Assembly (NCBI GenBank): GCA_020725385.1
Contig: DYFC01000034.1
Location: forward strand, 8,339-72,338
Source of the DNA: Nitrospira japonica
GTDB lineage: Bacteria > Nitrospirota > Thermodesulfovibrionia > Thermodesulfovibrionales > SM23-35
Direction of reading: 5' to 3'
DNA length: 64,000 bases
The number at the start of each line of letters is the position of its first letter. The first letter of the stretch is position 1. Below, in pieces: positions 5,515 through 47,242 of the stretch. The notes below the pieces were generated by a model that was given only the letters and a program-made list of their open reading frames with translations, was not told the origin of the DNA and searched no databases. The position numbers were made by a program, and so were the translations under genes.

Positions 5515-7787
5515 AGAAGATTTTTATAGATAAGAGAAGACATTTAATAAGACAGAGTTTCTCTCTTTTCAAGTTTAAACAATTTTATATCCTCAAAATG
5601 ATTTCGGTCATGTTCATGCTCGGAGCTTTGTTTAATTTCCTGGGTTGTGCTTCATCTGGAAACAAATCAGGAGAGACTTTAAAACCTGTTGAGCCAGCGG
5701 TTATAACGTCTATAGATATTCAGGATCATGCAATGATAATTACTGCCAGCAAACCTTTTATTTATACAATATATAAGCCCGGTGATCCTTACAAACTAAT
5801 AATCGACCTTCCCGATGTATCTGCCGGAACATTTACGAAAAAGATTGTAGCAAGAAAAAGCGGGATTACCGAAGTAAGCCCTTCACAGATCACCACACCT
5901 TCACCTCTCACAAGAATAGAGATGCTTATGCAAAGCCCTTATTCTTATGAGCAGGAATATAAAAATAATGTTCTCACTGTGAAAATAAAAGAAGAAACGC
6001 CGGCTGTAAAGGCAGAACCATTAAGCGATGTCAAAGTCACAGAACTTATTCAGGAGCAAAAGAAACCTGTTCCTGTTGTAGAGAAAGTTCCGGATATGCC
6101 TTCTGTTCCATCTGTGCCTTTGCCGGATGCAACAGAAATAAATAATATTTCTTTTGATCAATACGGCAGGGTTGTAAGAGTAAAGATTAAAGGTAATGGC
6201 TCGATGGTCCCGAATGTTTTTCCGCTTGAAAACAGAATTGTTATAGATATTCCGAATGTTAAGTTAAATGCAGCTATTCCTTCGGAAGTAATGTCGCCTG
6301 TAAAAGGGATTCGTTCAGGAAGATATGATGACAAAGTAAGGCTTGTTCTTGATTTACAGGAAGATACAAACTTCGATGTTGCATCGATAAGCGATTCTAT
6401 AATAATCAGTCTCCGGGGACGCGGTGAAGAAATACCAACTGCCCAGATGACAAGAAACATACTTGCCGAAACAGAGAGCGCAGAACCTGTTTCAGCGCCT
6501 GTAAAAGTGCCCGAAGCTCTTGCAGGAAGTAAATGTCAATCATATCTTGAAGGAAAAGAAAATGTAAACTTTGATTTTCAGGATCAGGACATAGTCCCTA
6601 TTCTCAGGCTTTTTGCAGACATCAGTAATTGCAATTTGTTTCTGCATCCGGAAGTTAAAGGCAAAGCCACAATGAAGTTCCGTGATGTGCCATGGAATCA
6701 GGCTCTCGATACGATACTAAAAACCTTCAGCCTTGATAAATCTGTTGAAGGAAATGTAATAAGAATAGCTCCGAATACTGTATTTACAAGAGAGAAAGAG
6801 GAGAAAGTCAAACTTCAGGAAGCTCAGGTAAAAGCCGAGCCATTGGAACAGAGAATTTATCCTGTAAGCTACGCAGATGTCGGAATAGTTGAAAGTGCTA
6901 TTAAGAAAGTATTGACACCAAGAGGCAGTATCAATGTTGACAAAAGAACAAGCACAATGGTTGTAAAAGATGTTGCTACTGTTTTCCCGGAAGTCGAAAA
7001 TCTTCTAAAAACACTCGACAAACCAACACCGCAGGTTTTAATAGAGGCAAGGATTGTCGAAGTTAATACAAACAGCGAACGAGAACTTGGAATCCAGTGG
7101 GGCGTTAATCTCAAGACAACAAATACACTTGCATCTATCGGCGGATTAAGCGGGGTACCTTTGCTTTCAACAGGACCTTTTACGGGTGGAAACTATCTTG
7201 TTGATTTCCCGGCAAAAGGAGTTGGTCCGTTGTCAGGTTCGGGGTTTACATTTGGGATAATAGACCCGGCGCGTTCAATAGGTCTTGATTTACAGCTCTC
7301 TGCAATTGAGACAATGGGACATCTCAAGGTTATATCAAATCCTAAGGTATTAACGATAGACAACGGCAAAGCAAAAATACTTCAGGGCAAAAGCATTCCT
7401 GTTAGAAAACTTACAACCGAAGGCACGGTATCAACAGAATTTAAAGATGTAACTCTTGAGCTTAATGTAACTCCTCATATAACACCTGATAGATCTATTA
7501 GCATGAGTGTAGAGATTAAAAAAGAAGAACTTGACCCAACAGTTCCATCTGTTGAAGGAGTGCCCGGTACCGATAAAAAAGAAGCTAATACAAATGTAAT
7601 TATAAAAGATGGCGAAACAATTGTTATTGGTGGAATGTATAAAGTTACAACAAATGATTCTGAATCAGGTGTGCCGGGGTTAATGAAAATTCCGATACTC
7701 GGATGGCTTTTTAAATCTAATAAGGTTTCATCAAATACCAGTGAATTATTGATTTTCATAACTCCGAGAATTTTAGATAAGCAATAA
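5511..7787 (+). CDS. pilQ: type IV pilus secretin PilQ with two N-terminal AMIN-like domains
   Basis: C-terminal secretin domain (VLIEARIVEV..., GVPGLMKIPILGWLFK..., ELLIFITPRIL). Two AMIN-like repeats (YKLIIDLPDV..., RIVIDIPNV...). The true start may be the internal M at about 5598, followed by FLGCASS. Confidence 0.9.
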   Translation: MKKIFIDKRRHLIRQSFSLFKFKQFYILKMISVMFMLGALFNFLGCASSGNKSGETLKPVEPAVITSIDIQDHAMIITASKPFIYTIYKPGDPYKLIIDLPDVSAGTFTKKIVARKSGITEVSPSQITTPSPLTRIEMLMQSPYSYEQEYKNNVLTVKIKEETPAVKAEPLSDVKVTELIQEQKKPVPVVEKVPDMPSVPSVPLPDATEINNISFDQYGRVVRVKIKGNGSMVPNVFPLENRIVIDIPNVKLNAAIPSEVMSPVKGIRSGRYDDKVRLVLDLQEDTNFDVASISDSIIISLRGRGEEIPTAQMTRNILAETESAEPVSAPVKVPEALAGSKCQSYLEGKENVNFDFQDQDIVPILRLFADISNCNLFLHPEVKGKATMKFRDVPWNQALDTILKTFSLDKSVEGNVIRIAPNTVFTREKEEKVKLQEAQVKAEPLEQRIYPVSYADVGIVESAIKKVLTPRGSINVDKRTSTMVVKDVATVFPEVENLLKTLDKPTPQVLIEARIVEVNTNSERELGIQWGVNLKTTNTLASIGGLSGVPLLSTGPFTGGNYLVDFPAKGVGPLSGSGFTFGIIDPARSIGLDLQLSAIETMGHLKVISNPKVLTIDNGKAKILQGKSIPVRKLTTEGTVSTEFKDVTLELNVTPHITPDRSISMSVEIKKEELDPTVPSVEGVPGTDKKEANTNVIIKDGETIVIGGMYKVTTNDSESGVPGLMKIPILGWLFKSNKVSSNTSELLIFITPRILDKQ

Positions 7788-7803
7788 AATATTTAAAAAT
7801 TTT

Positions 7804-8009
7804 GTCATTCCCGGGCTTGACCAGAGAATCCAGAAAGCACGGGACTGGATTCCCCGATTAAATCGGGGAATGACATTATTCTTGACTGTCATACCATGAC
7901 GTGATCGTGGTATCCAGTGATAAAGCTTAAAAACTGGATTCTTCAATCCCGCCATGAAAACGGCGGGCAGGTAAATCGGGGAATGACGTAAGGAAGATGT
8001 GACATCCAC
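7804..8009. repeat. repeat cluster A: four GTCATTC-hairpin-GAATCCAG units in both orientations, one with a nested hairpin, plus a GGATGTGACATCC palindrome
   Basis: Units at 7804-7833 (+), 7845-7874 (inverted), 7888-7917 (GTCATACC variant) and 7934-7987 (inverted, with cccgcc..ggcggg nested). Confidence 0.85.
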
Positions 8010-8015
8010 GATAAA

Positions 8016-8225
8016 TTGTGGAATTTAGAGGTAATCTTGAAATTCAATGAACTTATAAGATTACTCGAAGAAAATGGTTTTAGAATTATAAAAGAAAAAG
8101 GCGCAATAAGGTATTACGGAAAACCCGGATGGAAAAACTTGATCAGAGTTGATTATCATGGCTCAAAGGAAGTACCGAAAGGGACGTGTCATGCTATACT
8201 TAAAGCAGCAGGTATTAAATTATAA
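8016..8225 (+). CDS. hicA: HicA-family mRNA interferase toxin
   Basis: LIRLLEENGFRIIKEKGAIRYYGKPG...HGSKEVPKGTCHAILKAAGI matches the HicA/YcfA fold signature. TTG start at 8016, or an in-frame TTG at 8037. Confidence 0.8.
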   Translation: MWNLEVILKFNELIRLLEENGFRIIKEKGAIRYYGKPGWKNLIRVDYHGSKEVPKGTCHAILKAAGIKL

Positions 8226-8244
8226 CTATGGATGGAAAAAATAG

Positions 8245-8490
8245 ATGTTAGAATTAGAATATTCTCTAATAATAGAAGCGACGGAAGATCCGGATTTTTT
8301 TGGTTTTTATTCTCCTGAACTTGAAGGTTTCTCAGGGATAGGGCATTCTATTGAGGATTGTATATATAGGGCAAAATGGGGAATGATAGAGCATGTGAAT
8401 TTATTGAAAGAAAAAGGATTGCCTGTTCCACCTAAAAATCCTGAACCAAGAATAATAATACAGAATGAACAGGCGATGGCAACTGCTTGA
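8245..8490 (+). CDS. hicB: HicB-family antitoxin (short form, no obvious C-terminal DNA-binding domain)
   Basis: UPF0150/HicB-like N-terminal domain (YSLIIEATEDPDFFGFYSPELEGFSGIGHSIEDCIYRAKWGMIEHV), immediately downstream of hicA. Confidence 0.75.
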   Translation: MLELEYSLIIEATEDPDFFGFYSPELEGFSGIGHSIEDCIYRAKWGMIEHVNLLKEKGLPVPPKNPEPRIIIQNEQAMATA

Positions 8491-8533
8491 ATAAAATTAG
8501 GAGAAGATAAATATAAATAACATTTTTTAGTTT

Positions 8534-8748
8534 GTCATTCTCGGGCTTGAATGGATGAGAAAGGTAATAAACAACCCCCTGACCCCCTTAACAAAGGGGG
8601 AATAAGGTGTGGACAAAGGGATTGCCTTATAAATTCCCCCTTATAAAAGGGGTTTACCTTATTATATTCCCCCTTAGAAAAGGGGGATGAAGGGGGTTGT
8701 AAAAGGCTTTAAATTTTTGTCATTCTCGGTCTTGACCCGAGAATTATA
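8534..8748. repeat. repeat cluster B: composite G5/C5 module bracketed by two GTCATTCTCGG hairpin units
   Basis: aaccccctgacccccttaacaaaggggga ... gccttataaattccccctt ... ttaccttattatattcccccttagaaaagggggatgaagggggttgt. The element order is the same as at 12625-12877 and 15497-15797. Confidence 0.85.
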
Positions 8749-8795
8749 GTATTTTAAAAATAATGACTAATAATTTATAAATAAAAGGGGGTAAA

Positions 8796-9413
8796 ATGAA
8801 AAGGAGTCTATTGGAAGTTTTTCTTTTCTATACTTTTATAAGCCTTATTCTAACAGGCTGCGGCGGAGGTGGTTCTGGCTCTCCCGGTTCTTCAGGAAGC
8901 GAAAGCACAGGCATACAGATAAGCGCTGTCTCGATAACAAGCGAAAAAGGACCGGATTTTGATGTTTTTTCTGCTCCTTTAGCCTGTCCTCCGGATAATC
9001 CTACAAAATCCGAAGCCCTTTTGACAAGAGAAGATGCAACGATAACAATAGACGCAACAGTTCTTAATCCGAGCAGCACATTTGACCCTTTTCCTGCAAG
9101 CGTTGAAGAATGCACCATAACATATTTAAAAGCCCGTGAAGACCCTTCAGCCCCTGTAATAGAATCATGGAAGATATATCCAAATTGTCCAATTTATGAT
9201 TCGCCTTCCAACATATGCAATGTATCATTAATCGATATTACACGTAAAAATAAATTCTGGACGGATATAAATGATGGTATCCATGTGCCCGCAGAATACC
9301 CAACACATTATGTAGCAAAATATCACTGCAAATATATGAATAGAGTAGGAAAGTATGGTTATTTCGATGTTGAATATGATATGTGGCTTGCAGATTTCTT
9401 AATTTGTGATTAG
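8796..9413 (+). CDS. hypothetical lipoprotein (Gly/Ser-rich linker, Cys-containing globular part)
   Basis: GGGGG RBS, signal peptide plus lipobox LTGCGGGGSGSPGSSGS. No family recognised. Confidence 0.6.
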   Translation: MKRSLLEVFLFYTFISLILTGCGGGGSGSPGSSGSESTGIQISAVSITSEKGPDFDVFSAPLACPPDNPTKSEALLTREDATITIDATVLNPSSTFDPFPASVEECTITYLKAREDPSAPVIESWKIYPNCPIYDSPSNICNVSLIDITRKNKFWTDINDGIHVPAEYPTHYVAKYHCKYMNRVGKYGYFDVEYDMWLADFLICD

Positions 9414-9421
9414 GAGGAGCG

Positions 9422-12316
9422 ATGAATAAAAAAACAATAATTGCAATTTTACTTCTTTCAATATTTTTATTTAATTGTGGAGGAGGAGGCTCGGGCGGGT
9501 CAAGTTCACCGGCTGGCGAGAAACCCGGAGTTCCCGAGATTGTTCAGGTTTTACCATCACATTATATCGCTCTGACAAATTCTGCAATAATCATAAGGGC
9601 AAAGATATTGAACGGAAACGGCGGTCCTGTTAGAAATTATCCAGTCACTTTTACTAATCTGTCCCCTATTGGAACTCTTATAAATGAAAATGATGTTCCT
9701 GTAGGAAATAAAACAGTTGTAAAAACAAACAATAGCGGTCTTGCCACAATAAAAGTAAAGTCAACCATAACAGGTTTTGCGACAATAATGGCTGAGGTTG
9801 CAAAGGGTGTGGGAATCGTAAGGGATAAAAAGACAGTATATTTCAGTTCAACTCTCGCATCACAGCCTTTCATGTATCTTGATGCAGATGCTGACAGCGA
9901 TGGAACTTATAACGAGCCCTCTGATTACACATTGTTTGAAGGCGGGAATGCTTCAGACAATCAGGTCTTAATGAGAGCAACTGTTTTCAATAAATTCGGA
10001 CAGCGTGTATATGGAGCTACCGTTAAGTTCGGATCAGACTATCCATATAAAGAAGGTTCATCAACAACATGTAGTGATGGAACAACTACATGCTATGTAA
10101 CTTTCCCCAATGGCACTACAGCTACAACCGATTCGAACGGACAGGCTTATGTTTTGGTGCAGGTTGACCCTGTATTGAGAAATCTGATAACTGTCTTAAA
10201 CATTACAGCAGTGGCAGACACAAACGGTGACGGATACGCTGATGCAGGCGGAGTTTATTCATTATATCTTTTGCCAATAACCTTGAATTCAATCACAGTT
10301 ACAGCAAGTCCGGATATAGTTGCTCCTAATGCTAAATCAACTATATCAGCGGCAGTAAAATTAAACACAGGAGGTCCTGCGCCTGATGGAACAGCTGTTG
10401 GTTTTGTAGCTGACTGTGGTTCGGTAGAGCCATTTGCTCTCACATCAACAGGGCTTGCAAAAGCAGAATTTGTTGCGCCATCAGCACCACCTTCATCAGG
10501 AACCTGCCGTGTAACAGCAACAGTTGATGGCTTAAGCAATTTTGTTGATATTACAATTTCATCCGATCTTGTTGTTGTGCCTGATGCGCAGGTAATAAGC
10601 GGGGCATCAGGCGGAACAGTTTCATATGTAATATCAGGAGGAGTAAGACCATATACTGTAACCTCATCAAATCGCTTTGTCGCGTGTAATAGCGAGGATA
10701 CTGATTGCTCCGATGCAGAGGATTCTGGCACATGGAATATATCAACTCCTGATGGAAGCGGAAACTATATATTTACAGCAACTGTACCGCCAAACACACC
10801 TTCACAATCTGTTACATTTACAGTTATGGATGCAGTAGGCAAGACAAAAACCGCAACACTTACAATCAATGTTGCTGCATTAACAGTTCAACCCGGAACA
10901 GTAACAATTGATGGCACAGCAGGTGGAATTGTAACCTTTACAATCTATGGCGGAGTTCCGCCATATGATATATTTGCAAACATTGCAGACCCTGTCTTTG
11001 CTCCTAACCCTGCGCAGGTTACATCAAGCGGAAGTGCCTTCACTGTTACAGTTCCTGCAAATACAACTGCTAAAACGATTATATATACTGTTAGGGATGC
11101 AAATGGCGCAACAACAACAGGAACTTTGACAATATCAGCAGTAGCGCCTCCGGGATTGTTAATAATCCCTGCAAGTCAGAGTGTTGTAGCTCCAAATACT
11201 GCAAGCTTCTCTGTTTCAGGCGGGACTGCGCCATATGTTATAACCTCTACAGATCCATCGAGTGCCTGTAATTCAACAGATGCAGACTGTTCTGATGCAG
11301 GTGATACAGGTATCTGGAATCTTGCATCAGCAGGCTCATTCACTGTTACTGTACCTACAAATGCTGTTGCAGGAAATGTAACATTGAATGTATTCGATTC
11401 TGTAGGTGCTACAAAGAGCGCAACGTTAACTATTATTTCTGGTGGTGCTGCGTCTGCTTTAACAATTAATCCAGCAAGTATTTCTGTAACAGGGTTAGGT
11501 CCAGATGATCCTTCTGATACTGATAAAGATGATGTTACATTTATAATTTCAGGCGGTAGCGGTTCTTATACAGTTTTCTCGTCAAATACAGCAATAGCTA
11601 AAATTAAAACTACAGGAACAAGTTCATTTACAGTTGACCCACAGCCAGTTGCCGCTACAACAGCAGCTACTTTAACAGTTGTTGATTCACTTGGTGCAAG
11701 TAAGACAGCAACAATTACTGTGACTCCATTGTCTTCGTCAATGGCTATTAACCCGAGCACACTTGCAGTTACATCGGGTACTAATAATATTGGCTTTAAC
11801 ATTATAGGTGGGGTGGCTCCTTATACTGTATATTCAAGCAATACATCAGTTATTGTTTTAGATGGCGGAGGTGGCACAGGACCATGGACAATATCTGGTA
11901 ATTCTTTTACTGCTGATGCTGCGGGTGCTGGTAATGCAGTAATAACTGTTGTTGATAGTGATGGAAAAACAGTTACTTCAAATATAACAGTGACACCTTC
12001 TGCTCAAGATTTTACACTAACGTGTGTTCCTAATGCACTTAGTATTGCTATTGGAAGTAGTGATGTTAGTACTTGTACTGTGACTTCTTTAAATGGATTT
12101 ATAAACAATGTTAATTTGAGTTGTGATGGATTACCTACTGGTGTTAGTTGTAGTTTTAGTCCTGCAATTATTGCACCTCCTCCTGCTGGTTCTTCTGATA
12201 GTAGTCTAACGATTACTATTGGTTTAGCTGCCTCTTCTGGTGTATATAATTTCAATGTTGTTGGAACAAGTGGTAGTCTTTCACATGTACAAACAATTAA
12301 CTTGACAATCCCTTAA
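9422..12316 (+). CDS. large surface lipoprotein with bacterial Ig-like (Big_1-type) domains and five repeated modules of about 90 aa
   Basis: Lipobox LFNCGGGGSGGSS. Invasin/intimin-like Ig domains (ATIKVKSTITGFATIMAEV). Repeated modules carry the x(I/V)SGGxxPY(T/V)V motif. Thr/Ser/Ala/Gly-rich. Confidence 0.75.
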   Translation: MNKKTIIAILLLSIFLFNCGGGGSGGSSSPAGEKPGVPEIVQVLPSHYIALTNSAIIIRAKILNGNGGPVRNYPVTFTNLSPIGTLINENDVPVGNKTVVKTNNSGLATIKVKSTITGFATIMAEVAKGVGIVRDKKTVYFSSTLASQPFMYLDADADSDGTYNEPSDYTLFEGGNASDNQVLMRATVFNKFGQRVYGATVKFGSDYPYKEGSSTTCSDGTTTCYVTFPNGTTATTDSNGQAYVLVQVDPVLRNLITVLNITAVADTNGDGYADAGGVYSLYLLPITLNSITVTASPDIVAPNAKSTISAAVKLNTGGPAPDGTAVGFVADCGSVEPFALTSTGLAKAEFVAPSAPPSSGTCRVTATVDGLSNFVDITISSDLVVVPDAQVISGASGGTVSYVISGGVRPYTVTSSNRFVACNSEDTDCSDAEDSGTWNISTPDGSGNYIFTATVPPNTPSQSVTFTVMDAVGKTKTATLTINVAALTVQPGTVTIDGTAGGIVTFTIYGGVPPYDIFANIADPVFAPNPAQVTSSGSAFTVTVPANTTAKTIIYTVRDANGATTTGTLTISAVAPPGLLIIPASQSVVAPNTASFSVSGGTAPYVITSTDPSSACNSTDADCSDAGDTGIWNLASAGSFTVTVPTNAVAGNVTLNVFDSVGATKSATLTIISGGAASALTINPASISVTGLGPDDPSDTDKDDVTFIISGGSGSYTVFSSNTAIAKIKTTGTSSFTVDPQPVAATTAATLTVVDSLGASKTATITVTPLSSSMAINPSTLAVTSGTNNIGFNIIGGVAPYTVYSSNTSVIVLDGGGGTGPWTISGNSFTADAAGAGNAVITVVDSDGKTVTSNITVTPSAQDFTLTCVPNALSIAIGSSDVSTCTVTSLNGFINNVNLSCDGLPTGVSCSFSPAIIAPPPAGSSDSSLTITIGLAASSGVYNFNVVGTSGSLSHVQTINLTIP

Positions 12317-12321
12317 TGAAT

Positions 12322-12347
12322 AAGGGCGGGGAAGCCCGCCCTTTGTA
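12322..12347 (+). terminator. rho-independent terminator after the Ig-like gene
   Basis: aagggcggg-gaag-cccgccctt hairpin followed by a T-rich stretch, 6 nt after the stop codon. Confidence 0.7.
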
Positions 12348-12362
12348 TAAAACATTTGTTTT

Positions 12363-12877
12363 GTCATTCTCTGGCTTGACCAGAGAATCCAGAAGGCACG
12401 GAACTGGATTCCCGCTTTCGCGGGAATGACAAAATATAGGTGTGGATTCCTCAATCAAGTTGAGGAATGACGAATTGGATGTGACATCCATAAAAAATGG
12501 AATGACGTTTAAATGACTTGTCATTCCCGGGCTTGACCCGGGAATCCAGAATTTTCTGTCATACCACAATTCTCTGGTCAAGCCAGAGGGCATGCTTGAT
12601 TGTGGTATCCAGAGGGAAGAAAGGCACAACCCCCTAACCCCCTTGACAAAGGGGGAATAGGTGTAGGGAATAACAAAGGGGGAAAGGCACAACCCCCTGA
12701 CCCCCTTAACAAAGGGGGAAAGGCACAACCCCCTAACCCCCTTGACAAAGGGGGAAAAGGGTAGTGGTTAACAAAGGGGGAATAGGTTGTGGAGAAGGGG
12801 TTACCTTATAAATTCCCCCTTAAAAAAAAGGAGGTTACCTTATTATATTCCCCCTTAGAAAAGGGGGATGAAGGGGG
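12363..12877. repeat. repeat cluster C: six GTCATTC/GTCATACC hairpin units (one nested inside another) followed by a composite G5/C5 module that runs into the DUF559 start
   Basis: Hairpin units at about 12363-12392, 12404-12430 (inverted), 12444-12473 (inverted), 12519-12548 and 12558-12614 (nested). 36-bp units from about 12625. The cluster ends ...ttaccttattatattcccccttagaaaagggggatgaagggggttgt. Confidence 0.9.
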
Positions 12878-12883
12878 TTGTTT

Positions 12884-13354
12884 ATGAAGCTTTATTACAA
12901 CCCAAAACTAAAATCTCTTTCAAGAGAACTAAGAAAAAAAGGGGTTCTTTCAGAAGCATTATTATGGAACTACTTAAAAGGCAGAAAATTGAGAGGCTAT
13001 TTATTTACAAGACAAAAACCTATTGGAAATTATATAGTAGATTTTTTTTGTAGCAAACTCAAATTAGTTATAGAGATTGACGGGGTAAGTCATGACGGTA
13101 GATACGACTATGATGAAGAAAGAGAAAAGTATCTCAAATCATTGGGATTAAAAATATTAAGGTTTAACGATACTGATGTTAAAAAAGATATAAGAAATGT
13201 ATTAATAGGTATTGAAGGTTGGATTGAAAGAAAGGAAAAGGGAGTAAACAACCCCCTGACCCCCTTAACAAAGGGGGAAAGGCACAACCCCCTGACCCCC
13301 TTAACAAAGGGGGAAAGGCACAACCCCCTGACCCCCTTAACAAAGGGGGAATAG
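12884..13354 (+). CDS. DUF559 (Vsr/restriction-endonuclease-like) domain protein with repeat-encoded C-terminal tail
   Basis: DUF559 signature LSRELRKKGVLSEALLWNYLKGRKLRGYLFTRQKPIGNYIVDFFCSKLKLVIEIDGVSH...ILRFNDTDV. ATG at 12884 lies 6 nt after the GGGGG of the repeat (track start is TTG at 12878). The last 35 aa, (NPLTPLTKGERH)x3, and the TAG stop come from 36-bp repeat units. Confidence 0.8.
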   Translation: MKLYYNPKLKSLSRELRKKGVLSEALLWNYLKGRKLRGYLFTRQKPIGNYIVDFFCSKLKLVIEIDGVSHDGRYDYDEEREKYLKSLGLKILRFNDTDVKKDIRNVLIGIEGWIERKEKGVNNPLTPLTKGERHNPLTPLTKGERHNPLTPLTKGE

Positions 13355-13427
13355 GGTAGTGGTTAACAAAGGGGGAATAGGTGTTGACAAAGGGTATGCC
13401 ATTATGAATTCCCCCTTTGTTAAGGTG
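13250..13427. repeat. repeat cluster D: 36-bp tandem unit x3 (13250-13357) plus the distal part of the composite G5/C5 module
   Basis: aaccccctgacccccttaacaaagggggaaaggcac repeated three times, then aatagggtagtggttaacaaagggggaataggtgttgacaaagggtatgccattatgaattccccctt. This is nearly identical to 12688-12835. Confidence 0.9.
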
Positions 13428-13472
13428 AAATAGCAACATATGAATTTACTTTACTTATAAAGGAGTGGAGCC

Positions 13473-15449
13473 ATGAAAAAATATTTCTGCGTTTTTATAT
13501 GCCTATTCATCGTATTATCAGGCATTCAAGCCTTTGCAGGCAATTCTTCAGAAAATGTAACCATAACCAAACCTAAAATAACTGTGGATTCAATTCTTGG
13601 AGAATTAAACAAAGGCAAATATGTTCAGGGTGAACTCCTTGTTAAATTCAAATCAGGCGCTTCGAAACAAACGTCTCAGGCAATTCATCAGTCATTAGGC
13701 GCAAAACTAATTAAAAAGTCAGCTATACTTGAAAATGTTGAACGTGTAAAGCTTCCCTCTGGTTTATCTATAAAAGATGCAATTATTCAATATATGTCAA
13801 ATCCAGATGTTGAGTATGCATCTCCTATTTTCATCAGAAAAGCTTCTGGAATCAGCAAACTCATGCCCGATGATCAGTTCTTCAGGGACCAATGGGCTTT
13901 AAGGAATACCGGGAAATATGCATATGGAACAAAAGGTGCTGATATTGATGCAACATATGCATGGCGTGTTTCAACCGGAAATTATGGAATAGTAGTAGCT
14001 GTTATCGACACCGGTATTGATTATACCCATCCTGACCTTGCTTCTAATTTATGGAGAAATAATGCAGAATGTAATGGTACAGCAGGTGTTGATGATGATG
14101 GCAATGGTTTTATTGATGACTGCACAGGATGGAATTTTGTAACATGCGAGGAATGGGGTGATTCGGGGTGTCTTTATCCAACGACCGGAAATAATGACCC
14201 TATGGATTATTACGGTCATGGAACACATGTGGCAGGAATTATTGGAGCAATCGGAAACAATGGTGTAGGCGTGACAGGGGTGATGTGGAGAGCCCGAATA
14301 ATGCCTGTAAGGGTCTTAAATCAATATGGTGAAGGTGATGATTCAGATATAGCAGAAGGTATTAAATATGCTGTTGACAATGGAGCAAAAGTTATAAATG
14401 CGAGTCTTGGCGGCTACGGGACAAGTCCTGTTCTGGAAGATGCAATGAATTATGCGTATTCACACGGCGTTCTTTTTGTTGCAGCAGCGGGGAACGAGTC
14501 AAATAATAATGATATAAATCCTTTCTATCCGGCAAGCTATTCATATGCAAATATAATTTCAGTGGCTGCAACAGATCAGGATGACCTTAGGGTTCAATTT
14601 AGCAATTTTGGTTATAGCTCTGTTGATGTTGGAGCTCCGGGTGTTTATATCATAAGCACCGTGCCAACATGGTGGGCTGATTATTATGGTTATGGTTATC
14701 TTGAGCATTTTGCAGGAACTTCAATGGCAGCGCCTCATGTTAGCGGTCTTGCAGGGCTTTTATATTCATACTACGTTAATTTTGACTATAGTCAAATAAA
14801 GAATATGATTATGAGTTATGTAGATGTACTTCCATCGTTGGATGGCTGGGTTTTTTCAAGAGGAAGAATAAATGCATTCAGCTCAATGTCTGCCTTATGG
14901 GAGCCTTTTGATCTTAAATTGAAAATAAAAGGTTCATATGTTGAGCTTAAATGGACTGATGTTGCGCATGCCGAGCAATATACGCTTGTTGAACGTAAGA
15001 CAGAAGGCGGAACATATGTTACACTTGCGACATTAGGCGCAAATGTAAATTCATATACAGACACTTATGGAATATCTGAAGGTGTTAAATATACATATCG
15101 CATTAGACTTAAAAATCAGATCGGCGAAACACCGGGACATCCTGATAATGAACGCTCTATTTCAACCGGTTTGATTGCGCCATCAGGGCTTAGAGCAACT
15201 GCACTGTCTAAATCAAAAGTAAAACTAACGTGGTTTGATGGTTCGGGTTCTGAAAAAGGCTTTAAAATATACAGGCACAATGGAACAGGTTCTTATATAC
15301 ATATAAAAACAGTTGGCAAAAATGTAACTTCATATACTGATAAGAAACTTGCCACAGGAACAAAGTACTGGTATCAGGTAAAAGCGTATAATGACTCGGG
15401 AGATTCTGATCCGTCAAATGAGGCAGAAGTTACAACCTCAGCCAAGTAA
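13473..15449 (+). CDS. secreted subtilisin-like serine protease (peptidase S8) with two C-terminal fibronectin type III domains
   Basis: Signal peptide. Catalytic triad motifs VAVIDTGID (Asp), HGTHVAGIIGA (His), GTSMAAPHVSGLAGLL (Ser). Two FN3-like repeats (YTLVERK...YTYRI, FKIYRHN...YWYQVKAYN). Confidence 0.9.
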   Translation: MKKYFCVFICLFIVLSGIQAFAGNSSENVTITKPKITVDSILGELNKGKYVQGELLVKFKSGASKQTSQAIHQSLGAKLIKKSAILENVERVKLPSGLSIKDAIIQYMSNPDVEYASPIFIRKASGISKLMPDDQFFRDQWALRNTGKYAYGTKGADIDATYAWRVSTGNYGIVVAVIDTGIDYTHPDLASNLWRNNAECNGTAGVDDDGNGFIDDCTGWNFVTCEEWGDSGCLYPTTGNNDPMDYYGHGTHVAGIIGAIGNNGVGVTGVMWRARIMPVRVLNQYGEGDDSDIAEGIKYAVDNGAKVINASLGGYGTSPVLEDAMNYAYSHGVLFVAAAGNESNNNDINPFYPASYSYANIISVAATDQDDLRVQFSNFGYSSVDVGAPGVYIISTVPTWWADYYGYGYLEHFAGTSMAAPHVSGLAGLLYSYYVNFDYSQIKNMIMSYVDVLPSLDGWVFSRGRINAFSSMSALWEPFDLKLKIKGSYVELKWTDVAHAEQYTLVERKTEGGTYVTLATLGANVNSYTDTYGISEGVKYTYRIRLKNQIGETPGHPDNERSISTGLIAPSGLRATALSKSKVKLTWFDGSGSEKGFKIYRHNGTGSYIHIKTVGKNVTSYTDKKLATGTKYWYQVKAYNDSGDSDPSNEAEVTTSAK

Positions 15450-15469
15450 CGTAATTTACTTATTAGTTT

Positions 15470-15932
15470 GTCATTCTCTGGCTCGACCAGAAGAGAAGGG
15501 TGTGACAACCCCCTAGCCCCCTTGACAAAGGGGGAAAGGCACAACCCCCTAACCCCCTTAACAAAGGGGGAAAAGCACAACCCCCTAACCCCCTTGACAA
15601 AGGGGGAATAGGGTAGTGGTTAACAAAGAGGGAATAGGTGTAGGGAATAACAAAGGGGGAATAGGGTGCATGAAAAGGGAATGCCATTATAAATTCCCCC
15701 TTAAAAAAAAGGGGGTTACCTTATTATATTCCCCCTTAAAAAAAAGGGGGTTACCTTATTATATTCCCCCTTAGAAAAGGGGGATGAAGGGGGTTGTAAA
15801 AGCCTTTAAAATTTTGTTGTTCTCGGGTCCTCTGGTTCCACCAAACAAATGGCGGACAAGCAAGTCAAAGGGCGTGCTTGATTGTGGTATCCAGAAACCT
15901 TGAAACTGGATTCCCGCTTTCGCGGGAATGAC
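15470..15932. repeat. repeat cluster E: hairpin unit, 36-bp units x3, composite module with 35-bp tandem unit (15703-15772), degenerate nested unit and a terminal inverted hairpin unit
   Basis: Same element order as cluster C but without a DUF559 gene. aaaaaaaagggggttaccttattatattccccctt occurs twice, followed by agaaaagggggatgaagggggttgt. Confidence 0.9.
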
Positions 15933-15967
15933 AGAAAAAATTTCGAATAACAAAAATGGTTTTAAGT

Positions 15968-16486
15968 CTATTTTTTAAGTTTTGCTATCAAATCCCTTAC
16001 CTTTGAAGCATCCGGCGCATTAGGTGAAATTGCAAGATATTGCTCGAATTCTTTTACTGCTTCGGATTTTTGTTTGAGATCAAAAGCCAGAACTACTCCA
16101 AGATTTCTATGGGCATTTGCATGATTGGGATTGATTGAAATGGCTTTTCTATATTCTTCAGCAGCTTTATCCGGTTTTCCGATGCTTCTGTAACATGTTC
16201 CCATATCAACCCTTACATCAACATTATTGGGGTCTATTTCAAGGGCTCTGCTATAGGCATCAATAGCATCGGCAAAACGATGTGTATCCATATAAATATT
16301 TCCAAGTTCAATTTGTGCATTTACATCTTTGGGATTCTGTCTTATTGATTCTTTAAGTTGAAAAATCTTATTTTCCAGGACCGGAGAGGTTGAAGGAACT
16401 TGAGAATAGGTTTTTGTATCTTCTTTTTTCTTACAGCCAGTCACTATTAGAAATGAAATAAAAAATATTATTAAAAATTTTTTCAT
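15968..16486 (-). CDS. TPR-repeat lipoprotein
   Basis: Lipobox LIVTGCKK. Three to four TPR motifs (AIDAYSRALEIDPNN, AAEEYRKAISINPNH, ...). Confidence 0.8.
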   Translation of the reverse strand: MKKFLIIFFISFLIVTGCKKKEDTKTYSQVPSTSPVLENKIFQLKESIRQNPKDVNAQIELGNIYMDTHRFADAIDAYSRALEIDPNNVDVRVDMGTCYRSIGKPDKAAEEYRKAISINPNHANAHRNLGVVLAFDLKQKSEAVKEFEQYLAISPNAPDASKVRDLIAKLKK

Positions 16487-19031: not shown

Positions 19032-19156
19032 GTCATTCCCCGACTTGATCGGGGAATCCAGAAATTTTCTTGTCAGTTTTACTTGTTACACATGCGACGT
19101 TGAGAAAGATTCACATTTTCTTTATACTGGATTATCCGGTCAAGCCGGATAATGAC
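19032..19156. repeat. repeat cluster F: two hairpin units in inverted orientation about 65 bp apart
   Basis: gtcattccccgacttgatcggggaatccag (19032-19061) and ctggattatccggtcaagccggataatgac (19127-19156), between convergent genes. Confidence 0.8.
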
Positions 19157-47105: not shown

Positions 47106-47242
47106 GTCATTCTACGACTTGCCTGCCCACCGATTTTGTGGTGGGATTGAGAATCCAGTTTGAATAGTCTCTGGATTCTCGGGTCAAGTCCGAGAATGAC
47201 AAGTAATCAAAGGTCATTCCCCGACTCGATCGGGGAATCCAG
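47106..47242. repeat. repeat cluster G: three hairpin units (one with a nested cccacc..ggtggg hairpin, one inverted)
   Basis: Units at 47106-47158, 47171-47200 (inverted) and 47213-47242 (gtcattccccgactcgatcggggaatccag). Confidence 0.85.

Follow-up and report, generated by a model that had tools for sequence, protein, structure and literature searches.

The window analysed here, a stretch of 64,000 nucleotides (nt) of contig DYFC01000034.1 (GenBank assembly GCA_020725385.1, assigned to Nitrospira japonica; contig positions 8,339 to 72,338), contains a gene for a DUF559 endonuclease set among short hairpin-forming repeats with runs of five G or five C. The repeat unit exists in two orientations: the R type, found downstream of the gene, reads ACAA-CCCCC / n3 / CCCCCTT / n4 / AAGGGGG, and the L type, found upstream of it, reads CCCCCTT / n4 / AAGGGGG / n3-5 / GGGGG-TTGT and is the exact reverse complement of R. 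Since the two types are reverse-complementary, the DUF559 gene is bracketed by inverted repeats of about 30 nt. The gene and the composite modules (G5/C5 modules) built from these units are located as follows, in window coordinates:

12884-13354, forward strand: DUF559 (Vsr/EDxHD-type PD-(D/E)XK) endonuclease gene, 156 amino acids (aa), Pfam PF04480.
8571-8719, forward strand: gene-less module 1, with one R-type unit, a middle segment, two 33-nt units and an L-type unit.
12626-12881, forward strand: module 2, immediately upstream of the DUF559 gene, with an R-type 36-bp array (12626-12757), a middle segment and 35-bp units.
12820-12849, forward strand: promoter-like match TTAAAA-18-TATATT, lying within a 35-bp unit some 35 nt before the ATG.
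13248-13351, forward strand: R-end of the gene unit, formed by three identical R-type units of 36 bp, read in frame.
13352-13427, forward strand: truncated second module, with the TAG stop, a middle segment (aatagggtagtggttaacaaaggggga...) and a degenerate hairpin ATTCCCCCTTTGTTAAGGTGA.
15505-15816, forward strand: gene-less module 3, with a set of three R-type units, a middle segment, a 35-bp unit in 2.5 copies and, ending at 15797, an L-type unit.

The first-pass annotation of this DNA had described a composite module recurring at three sites, and the recurrence was confirmed: ACAACCCCC opens the modules at 8571, 12626 and 15505, GGGGGTTGT closes them at 8692-8700, 12873-12881 and 15789-15797, and Tandem Repeats Finder detected tandem units of 36 bp (12671-12757, 2.4 copies, 96%; 13248-13351, 2.9 copies, 100%; 15505-15608, 2.9 copies, 94%) and of 33-35 bp (8618-8685, 12795-12862 and 15693-15778). 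With at most one mismatch, the hairpin core CCCCCTTNNNNAAGGGGG occurs 14 times, always within the module clusters, against a chance expectation of about 0.01 (0 of 100 shuffles attained 14). The module is found three times in the window, all between 8.5 and 15.8 kb, and nowhere in the other 56 kb. A strict scan of the window revealed three further C4/G4 hairpins, at 7851, 19037 and 47218, which belong to another repeat family, so that the G5/C5 module is limited to a 7.3-kb stretch around the gene.

At the gene itself, translation is taken to start at the ATG at 12884, with a TTG upstream at 12878. The L-type unit of module 2 occupies 12850-12881, and its gene-proximal arm GGGGGTTGT stops 2 nt short of the ATG, while the ACAACCCCC downstream of the gene is the reverse complement of this upstream arm. 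The last 34 codons of the open reading frame (ORF) are three 36-bp units, ACAACCCCC-tga-CCCCCTT-aaca-AAGGGGG-aaaggc, whose hairpin has a folding energy of -9 kcal/mol; they encode a tail consisting of (NPLTPLTKGERH)x2 followed by NPLTPLTKGE, and the TAG stop (13352-13354) is the first triplet outside the units. The earlier statements that the gene follows the module directly and that in-frame units form its tail up to a stop in the first non-unit triplet were thus borne out. The flanking direct repeats of about 150 bp, which had been called near-identical, are less alike than that, with 85% identity over 137 nt (12653-12789 versus 13248-13384). The truncated module behind the gene aligns with the other modules to column ~240 and lacks the terminal GGGGGTTGT, and the promoter-like match at 12820-12849 agrees with the consensus at 9/12 positions and is a candidate by this match alone.

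In module 1 the R-type unit is ACAACCCCC-tga-CCCCCTT-aaca-AAGGGGG and the L-type unit, which ends at 8700, is CCCCCTT-agaa-AAGGGGG-atgaa-GGGGGTTGT. As single-stranded DNA the whole module is predicted to adopt a single fold closed by ACAACCCCC/GGGGGTTGT (-35.7 kcal/mol, z=-5.6). The gene-less modules run from R units to an L unit, the reverse of the arrangement around the gene, and modules 1 and 3 adjoin genes unrelated to DUF559. They end, as had been noted, in a shared trailer in place of the gene: a conserved stretch of 19 nt, AAAAGGCTTTAAATTTTTG, directly follows module 1, and AAAAGCCTTTAAAATTTTG directly follows module 3. The idea that this trailer is a gene remnant was rejected, its best local match (KGRKL codons) being equalled by 18 to 288 of 300 shuffles. 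An Rfam scan of 7700-16100 at E<=1 returned sub-threshold chance matches only.

The product of the gene matches the Pfam DUF559 profile (PF04480) with E=1.1e-32, residues 8-110 aligning to positions 2-104 of the 109 in the profile. DUF559 and MTES_1575 are its only Pfam matches; no transposase domain was found in it by Pfam, and no recombinase gene adjoins its gene in the window. The catalytic core comprises residues 1 to ~120 (12884-13243) and the repeat-encoded tail residues 123-156. E64, D66 and H70, within the motif E-x-D-G-x-x-H-D, are invariant in 60 homologues and align with the corresponding residues of the structures 3hrl and 3r3p, which are also its relatives in the PDB by profile comparison (3hrl, E=4e-26; the I-Bth0305I catalytic domain 3r3p, E=5.9e-4). 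In the AlphaFold model the core is Vsr-like and has per-residue confidence scores (pLDDT) of 85-96 and the tail scores below 50, so the tail is predicted to be disordered. Foldseek, run on this model, gave 3hrl as the best match (TM 0.92, root-mean-square deviation 1.4), followed by 3r3p (probability 1.0, TMt 0.71) and 1vsr. That the gene has a Shine-Dalgarno-like G-run, an (NPLTPLTKGERH)n tail and its stop codon there is a by-product of its overlap with the repeat units; these are not selected features of the protein. The earlier proposal that the module supplies the ribosome-binding site, tail and stop is right as to their positions, but the tail is predicted to be disordered and is not conserved as protein.

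The association was followed in 80 genomic DUF559 loci from many phyla, fetched with flanks of up to 10 kb. Nearly all 80 loci have an L unit before the ATG and an R unit after the core. Counted in 79 loci as strict C4+ hairpins with a perfect stem, hairpins have a density of 5.7-5.9 per kb close to the genes (80 nt upstream, 120 nt downstream), against 0.063 per kb, ~90-fold less, in flanks lying over 500 nt from them; a perfect-stem hairpin is present at one gene end at least in 55/79 loci and at both ends in 29/79. Between unrelated hosts, DNA similarity is limited to the stretch from ~35-66 nt upstream of the ATG to ~45-90 nt past the core, and since it is bounded at both sides, what these hosts share is a discrete unit of ~0.45-0.5 kb. 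The end of the coding sequence overlaps the repeat unit in Nitrospirota, Planctomycetota, Bacteroidota and Enterobacteriaceae, and three-block units are also found near both ends of the genes of Neisseria gonorrhoeae (NGO0050, the 3hrl protein), Picosynechococcus PCC 7002 (plasmid pAQ6), a Synechocystis plasmid and Deinococcus.

Tails similar to PLTKGE, which the first-pass annotation had suggested looking for in other DUF559 proteins, proved to be common: 104/120 homologues carry the C-run signature, in at least three reading frames, so that one DNA yields NNPLTPFSKGE/NPLTPFSKGE, QPPSSPFVKGE, QPPDPLC* and NTTP* in homologues that are 51-75% identical and come from Nitrospirota, anammox Planctomycetota, Proteobacteria and others. 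Some annotated N-termini likewise translate the L unit (MKGVV..., ..SPLIKGDKG..). The repeat-encoded tail is conserved as DNA, not as protein. In the comparison between loci the composite module of the window did not hold up as the conserved entity either; this is instead a pair of inverted three-block units, each a hairpin with a third G/C block. The suspected link between DUF559 and the repeats withstood the refuting tests that the first-pass annotation had put forward and is partly supported. It is upheld by the fixed geometry at both gene ends in many phyla, but not by the distribution of the units elsewhere, which are ~99% solo among the matches listed. Judged on this sequence comparison, the cassette, in which the nuclease gene stands between its L and R units, is conserved and horizontally shared. 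Phages and plasmids were considered as carriers of the gene and rejected, there being only 3 distant DUF559 matches among phages and 41 plasmid/chromid records. As a separate observation, three syntenic loci from Cytophagales/Bacteroidia (L021, L034 and L053, gene at 10001) have a DUF559 frame that stays open through the R unit into an ORF of ~370 aa, a possible in-frame fusion or missing stop.

Repeats of this architecture are reportedly known since 1992, through work credited to Bergler in that year and to Hoyne and Maher in 2000 and 2002. They form the BoxC/PIT/TM class of intrastrand triplex motifs, in which a C-block, a loop, a G-block, a second loop and a mirror G-block follow each other (Holder et al. 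2015, PMC4666352). A TM repeat is defined by a pyrimidine block, a complementary purine block and a mirror block (G*G:C, A/T*A:T), its stems being 6 nt or longer and its loops short (PMC4666352). The unit of the window, CCCCCTT-n4-AAGGGGG-n3-5-GGGGGTT, has these three blocks and their mirror relation, and by its architecture it is to be placed in the BoxC/PIT/TM class; the repeat itself is not new.

Across loci, the units fall into at least seven sequence types. In 25/29 loci the gene-proximal 4-nt tag of the L unit is the exact reverse complement of that of the R unit, with seven different tag pairs (TTGT/ACAA, TGTG/CACA, ATGT/ACAT, TGGG/CCCA, TAGT/ACTA, AGGG/CCCT and ATTT/AAAT), and the mean match is 3.76 of 4, against 2.10 +/- 0.21 after permuting loci. 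Under the purine-motif triplex rules, the third block is a mirror image of the hairpin's purine arm at 176/184 informative positions (96%; 80 loci), compared with 72 +/- 2.6% after permutation; examples are AAGGGGG -> GGGGGTT, GAGGGG -> GGGGTG, AAAGGGG -> GGGGTAT and GGAGGGG -> GGGGTGG. Furthermore, the repeat type tracks the protein subclade rather than the host. The subclades MKIYYNPKLK, KIIPYNPKLK and MKLPANxSL have one repeat type each of their own, every type occurs across many phyla, and in Jettenia ecosi (L003/L035) and in L013, where two clades are present, each clade has its own type. Protein identity is 59.5% for pairs sharing a type and 53.8% for pairs of different type. The cassettes possess terminal inverted repeats, L and R being reverse complements up to and including an outer (A)ATT/AAT(T), and this flanking AATT is compatible either with an extension of the inverted repeat or with a target-site duplication.

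The repeat is vastly more abundant than the gene. A reverse scan of public collections with an R-type pattern gave 25 viral loci and at least 120 metagenome loci, in which the forms observed are solo units, complete a-h-a' palindromes, R..L pairs, and L..R pairs with 19-60 nt between them. Units without the gene indicate that they can persist, and perhaps spread, without it in cis. Solo units show no bias in orientation relative to neighbouring ORFs (19 sense, 27 antisense), and no T-tract was seen after the unit hairpins; on both grounds, a role as RNA-level element or terminator was rejected. Solo and arrayed three-block units were also observed in phage contigs (L089, which is IMGVR_UViG_3300009873_002201, minus strand ~6015-6043; L087, L091, L101 and L103), in short gaps between co-directional genes and with no DUF559 gene on those contigs; one such array combines two types, C5TT and C4TC. 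In seven metagenome contigs (L114, L118, L153, L109, L122, L148 and L155) many solo or paired units lie within a further shared repeat (..TGTATAGGAATTTTCATTTTATT.. and its complement), an embedding which suggests larger mosaic elements composed of several repeat families.

A second hairpin family, unrelated to G5/C5, was found in the window, with the form GTC-ATTCYC...loop...GRGAAT-CCAG (for example ATTCCCGCTTTCGCGGGAAT). Its members are located at 7849-7871, 8722-8744, 12366-12388, 12408-12427, 12446-12468, 12523-12545, 15910-15929, 19035-19057, 47175-47197 and 47216-47238, that is, in the same intergenic gaps as the G5/C5 modules and at other sites, and spurious ORFs such as ..IPAKAGIQ.. arise from it. 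We take it to resemble the ATTCCC-N8-GGGAAT (dRS3-like) repeats of Neisseria.

The presence/absence polymorphism in related genomes that the first-pass annotation had thought worth seeking does exist, for the gene and for the modules at all three sites. It was established through the orthologous neighbourhoods of the adjacent S8 peptidase at three loci. In the first (L106, 83% aa identity), a reduced module without the gene occupies the intergenic site of the gene, and module 3 is missing from the orthologous S8|TPR junction, which spans 6 nt; the other two (L107, 83%; L108, 65%) have neither gene nor module at the orthologous site. In the window, a HicA toxin gene (Pfam E=3e-12) and a small downstream ORF in the HicB position occupy 8016-8490 and sit, together with module 1, between PilQ and a 205-aa gene. 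The corresponding PilQ|205-aa junction of L108 lacks both module 1 and the HicA gene, and as it measures only 10 nt, the HicA toxin-antitoxin pair and the repeats are lineage-specific insertions.

Shortened copies of the cassette were found in a long-read Bacteroidales metagenome-assembled genome (L025, CAWAHF010000004.1), which contains a nest at 6900-15500 with two full DUF559 genes. At least eight miniature copies are present there, in each of which an L and an R unit enclose ~75 nt from the 5' end of the gene and ~30 nt from its 3' end, and the nest also has tandem arrays of an L unit plus 5' stub. It is interleaved with AAA_14/DUF4143 and ATPase_2 genes and an AbiEii-like gene adjoins it.

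In Escherichia coli, where a DUF559 gene (ycjD) and BoxC repeats occur in the same genomes, ycjD of strain K-12 ends ...RRSPSP* within a degenerate unit, and BoxC/TMECO #9 of Holder's Table 1 follows ~170 nt downstream. The intervening DNA of strain MG1655 (1351204-1351420; L229, also L230/L231) holds a ~60-nt duplicate of the ycjD 3' end with a degenerate unit, and then TMECO #9. In YcjD homologues of Enterobacter, Klebsiella, Kluyvera and others the C-terminal sequence is ...PSPRPSP*, corresponding to TMECO type B in reverse complement. As a weaker indication, no homologue named as Salmonella appeared among the best 120 matches, and TMECO has been reported absent from that genus. The gene is present in 3378/5426 complete E. 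coli genomes. In an evenly spaced sample of 59 chromosomes, ycjD-positive strains had a median of 16 BoxC places (range 8-26) and ycjD-negative strains 3.5 (range 1-14). At the position of ycjD, negative strains (O157, FDAARGOS_1303) have a TetR regulator and an RND efflux operon.

Taken together, the best reading is, in our estimation with a probability of about 55%, that the DUF559 cassette and the three-block repeats constitute a nuclease-repeat partnership of the REP/RAYT kind. The nuclease would recognise its cognate repeat, either folded (as hairpin or triplex, probably single-stranded) or as duplex, and would nick or cut there. Repair of the break by recombination or copying among repeat copies could then maintain and disperse the repeats; the same repair could produce arrays and miniature derivatives, and could carry the gene cassette between repeat-bearing sites and between genomes. 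The RAYT proteins with their REP/REPINs would be the model for such a cycle, or else a homing-like variant, with an enzyme and a repeat unrelated to those. The data point to DUF559 as the probable long-missing partner enzyme of the BoxC/PIT/TM repeats. More tentatively, and at somewhat less than even odds, DUF559 proteins in general, YcjD and NGO0050 (3hrl) included, may be the cognate structure- and sequence-specific nucleases of these repeats, driving their spread, maintenance and local instability; gene and repeats would then represent a new class of nuclease-based mobile or domesticated elements, distributed over many phyla and reaching phages.

Several points weigh against the partnership. 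Binding or cutting of the repeats by DUF559 is something we infer from sequence, and a lone nuclease of ~120 aa without strand-transfer activity would have to rely on host repair for its mobility. Among the matches listed, DUF559 stands beside an R-type unit in 1/120 metagenome loci (2/157 units) and in 0/25 viral loci, figures that refer to genes in cis only. The difference in BoxC places between ycjD-positive and ycjD-negative E. coli is significant by the Mann-Whitney test (p=1e-9), a statistic that ignores kinship, and O157 strains, which lack ycjD, still have ~12 BoxC copies. No clean empty site was resolved at the orthologous sites of the relatives, the sequences being too diverged or rearranged, nor was one found in E. 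coli, where the TetR and RND efflux island stands in place of ycjD. The flanking AATT is ambiguous, so that no target-site duplication is defined, and several lineages have the gene in synteny, apparently through vertical inheritance.

Some of these same observations feed the main rival, a homing-like landing-pad model, in which the repeats spread independently and DUF559 is a free-standing selfish gene that cuts and inserts at them and is for this reason always flanked by them. This model, which we consider unlikely, draws on the solo state of ~99% of the listed units, on the units in phage contigs without the gene, on the BoxC copies retained by O157 strains without ycjD and on the relationship of the protein to the EDxHD homing endonuclease I-Bth0305I; moreover, the L..R pairs 19-60 nt apart could be its uninterrupted targets. 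However, neither the relatives nor E. coli yielded a clean pair of an occupied and an empty allele, gene-independent repeats do not predict that BoxC should be far more numerous in ycjD-positive strains, and miniature internally deleted gene copies amplified in L025, together with a single-copy, syntenic gene in several lineages, also speak against it. It is improbable that the flanking arms have instead a cis-regulatory or switching role, pairing in the mRNA (GGGGGUUGU...ACAACCCCC) to control stability or translation, or mediating a programmed on/off inversion, with the dispersed units unrelated to it. The arms are indeed perfectly complementary and covarying, as an RNA stem or inversion sites would be, the G-run lies at Shine-Dalgarno distance, and DUF559 is 14-fold enriched among predicted inversion targets (PMC9881135), but neither an mRNA stem nor an inversion site needs the mirror rule of the third block, identical units stand alone in both orientations, no recombinase gene is adjacent, and PIT/BoxC repeats showed neither promoter nor terminator activity in earlier work (PMC4666352).

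Passive colonisation, in which the repeats are moved by another system and pile up in permissive intergenic regions with DUF559 as a bystander, is strongly disfavoured and has in our view very little probability. It would account for the second, unrelated hairpin family in the same gaps of the window, for modules 1 and 3 beside unrelated genes and for most of the listed units elsewhere having no DUF559 neighbour. It leaves unexplained why the geometry at the two gene ends is fixed from phylum to phylum, why hairpins are ~90-fold denser there than in flanks over 500 nt from the gene, why L and R match exactly in seven types, why one genome can have clade-specific types and why coding sequences end within units in Nitrospirota, Planctomycetota, Bacteroidota and Enterobacteriaceae alike; the covariation of L with R and the clade-specific repeat types make simple colonisation unlikely. 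If the partnership is correct, this specific, covarying association offers a candidate function at once for DUF559 and for the BoxC/PIT/TM repeats, and E. coli K-12, with ycjD, 23 BoxC copies and natural ycjD-negative strains, provides a direct test. To our knowledge, DUF559 is among the most widespread uncharacterised nuclease families, having a solved structure and no known function. The link between gene and repeat appears to be new: in the searched literature the partnership was not found described, no open-access paper being found that links DUF559 (PF04480/COG2852) to repeats.

Compared with the known members of the BoxC/PIT/TM class, the units share the succession of a C-block, a G-block and a mirror G-block, separated by a first loop of 3-6 nt and a second of ~3 nt; they are likewise intergenic, dispersed, without strand bias, often in inverted pairs and present in many phyla, and they show local insertion/deletion instability. 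They differ in their blocks, C5TT/AAG5/G5TT (7 nt) in the window as opposed to CCCTCNCCC (9 nt) in TMECO, whose consensus CCCTCNCCC N3-6 GGGNGAGGG N3 GGGNGAGGG the window blocks do not follow, and in forming larger tandem and composite modules. The class is abundant in Enterobacteria, cyanobacteria and Neisseria and has been found in hundreds of genomes; its repeats form triplexes in vitro and mark unstable loci, and their origin and spread have been left unexplained (PMC4666352). The triplex evidence, from circular dichroism and nuclear magnetic resonance, concerns TMECO (PMC4666352), the window units being known by their hairpin energies. Earlier work as summarised there found PIT/BoxC without promoter or terminator activity. 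The DUF559 link sets the present units apart from the literature on the class, which has no enzyme gene and states, on mobility genes, 'we never found ... transposases or integrases' (PMC4666352).

Among enzymes of the same fold, Vsr is linked to Dcm methyltransferases and T:G mismatches; for DUF559, in contrast, no Dcm partner was found. With Vsr and with the EDxHD homing endonuclease I-Bth0305I (PMC3239194, PMC3384342), DUF559 shares the catalytic fold and the E-x-D-x3-H-D motif, and the selfish-gene behaviour of I-Bth0305I is a precedent for a Vsr-like fold. Unlike that enzyme, the DUF559 genes considered here stand in no intron or intein context, and their proteins, of only ~120 aa, lack an N-terminal DNA-binding domain; no defined uninterrupted target allele was found for them. 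Miniature inverted-repeat transposable elements (MITEs) with their autonomous parents, and IS200/IS605 elements with their subterminal hairpins, resemble the cassette in having terminal inverted repeats with hairpins, in presence/absence polymorphism between relatives and in the amplification of internally deleted miniatures near full copies, as in L025. Here, however, there is no DDE or HUH transposase and no defined target-site duplication, and many copies stand in tandem or within composites and not as scattered single insertions. In one survey, 'DUF559 domain-containing protein' was 14-fold enriched among the predicted inversion targets, without follow-up (PMC9881135, Table 1), a result that fits a gene overlapped by inverted repeats.

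Another close parallel is with REP/REPINs and their RAYTs. In both cases a usually single-copy enzyme gene lies between inverted copies of a repeat that is far commoner elsewhere, the repeat type co-varies with the enzyme clade, repeat doublets and composite mosaics are formed, and repeats are fewer where the gene is absent, as seen here in E. coli. There are also differences. RAYT is an HUH/Y1 transposase (TnpA_REP), whereas the enzyme here is a PD-(D/E)XK Vsr-like nuclease; REP carries a GTAG/CGTC tag and a simple palindrome, whereas the present unit has variable tags of the ACAA/TTGT type and a third mirror block; and here the coding end overlaps the repeat. According to 10.1101/2022.05.22.493013, REPIN-RAYT systems are for the most part inherited vertically, whereas the present unit is shared across phyla, which is consistent with horizontal transfer. 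With DUF559 and its repeats, a second REP/RAYT-like system, built on an unrelated enzyme, would be added to the one already known.

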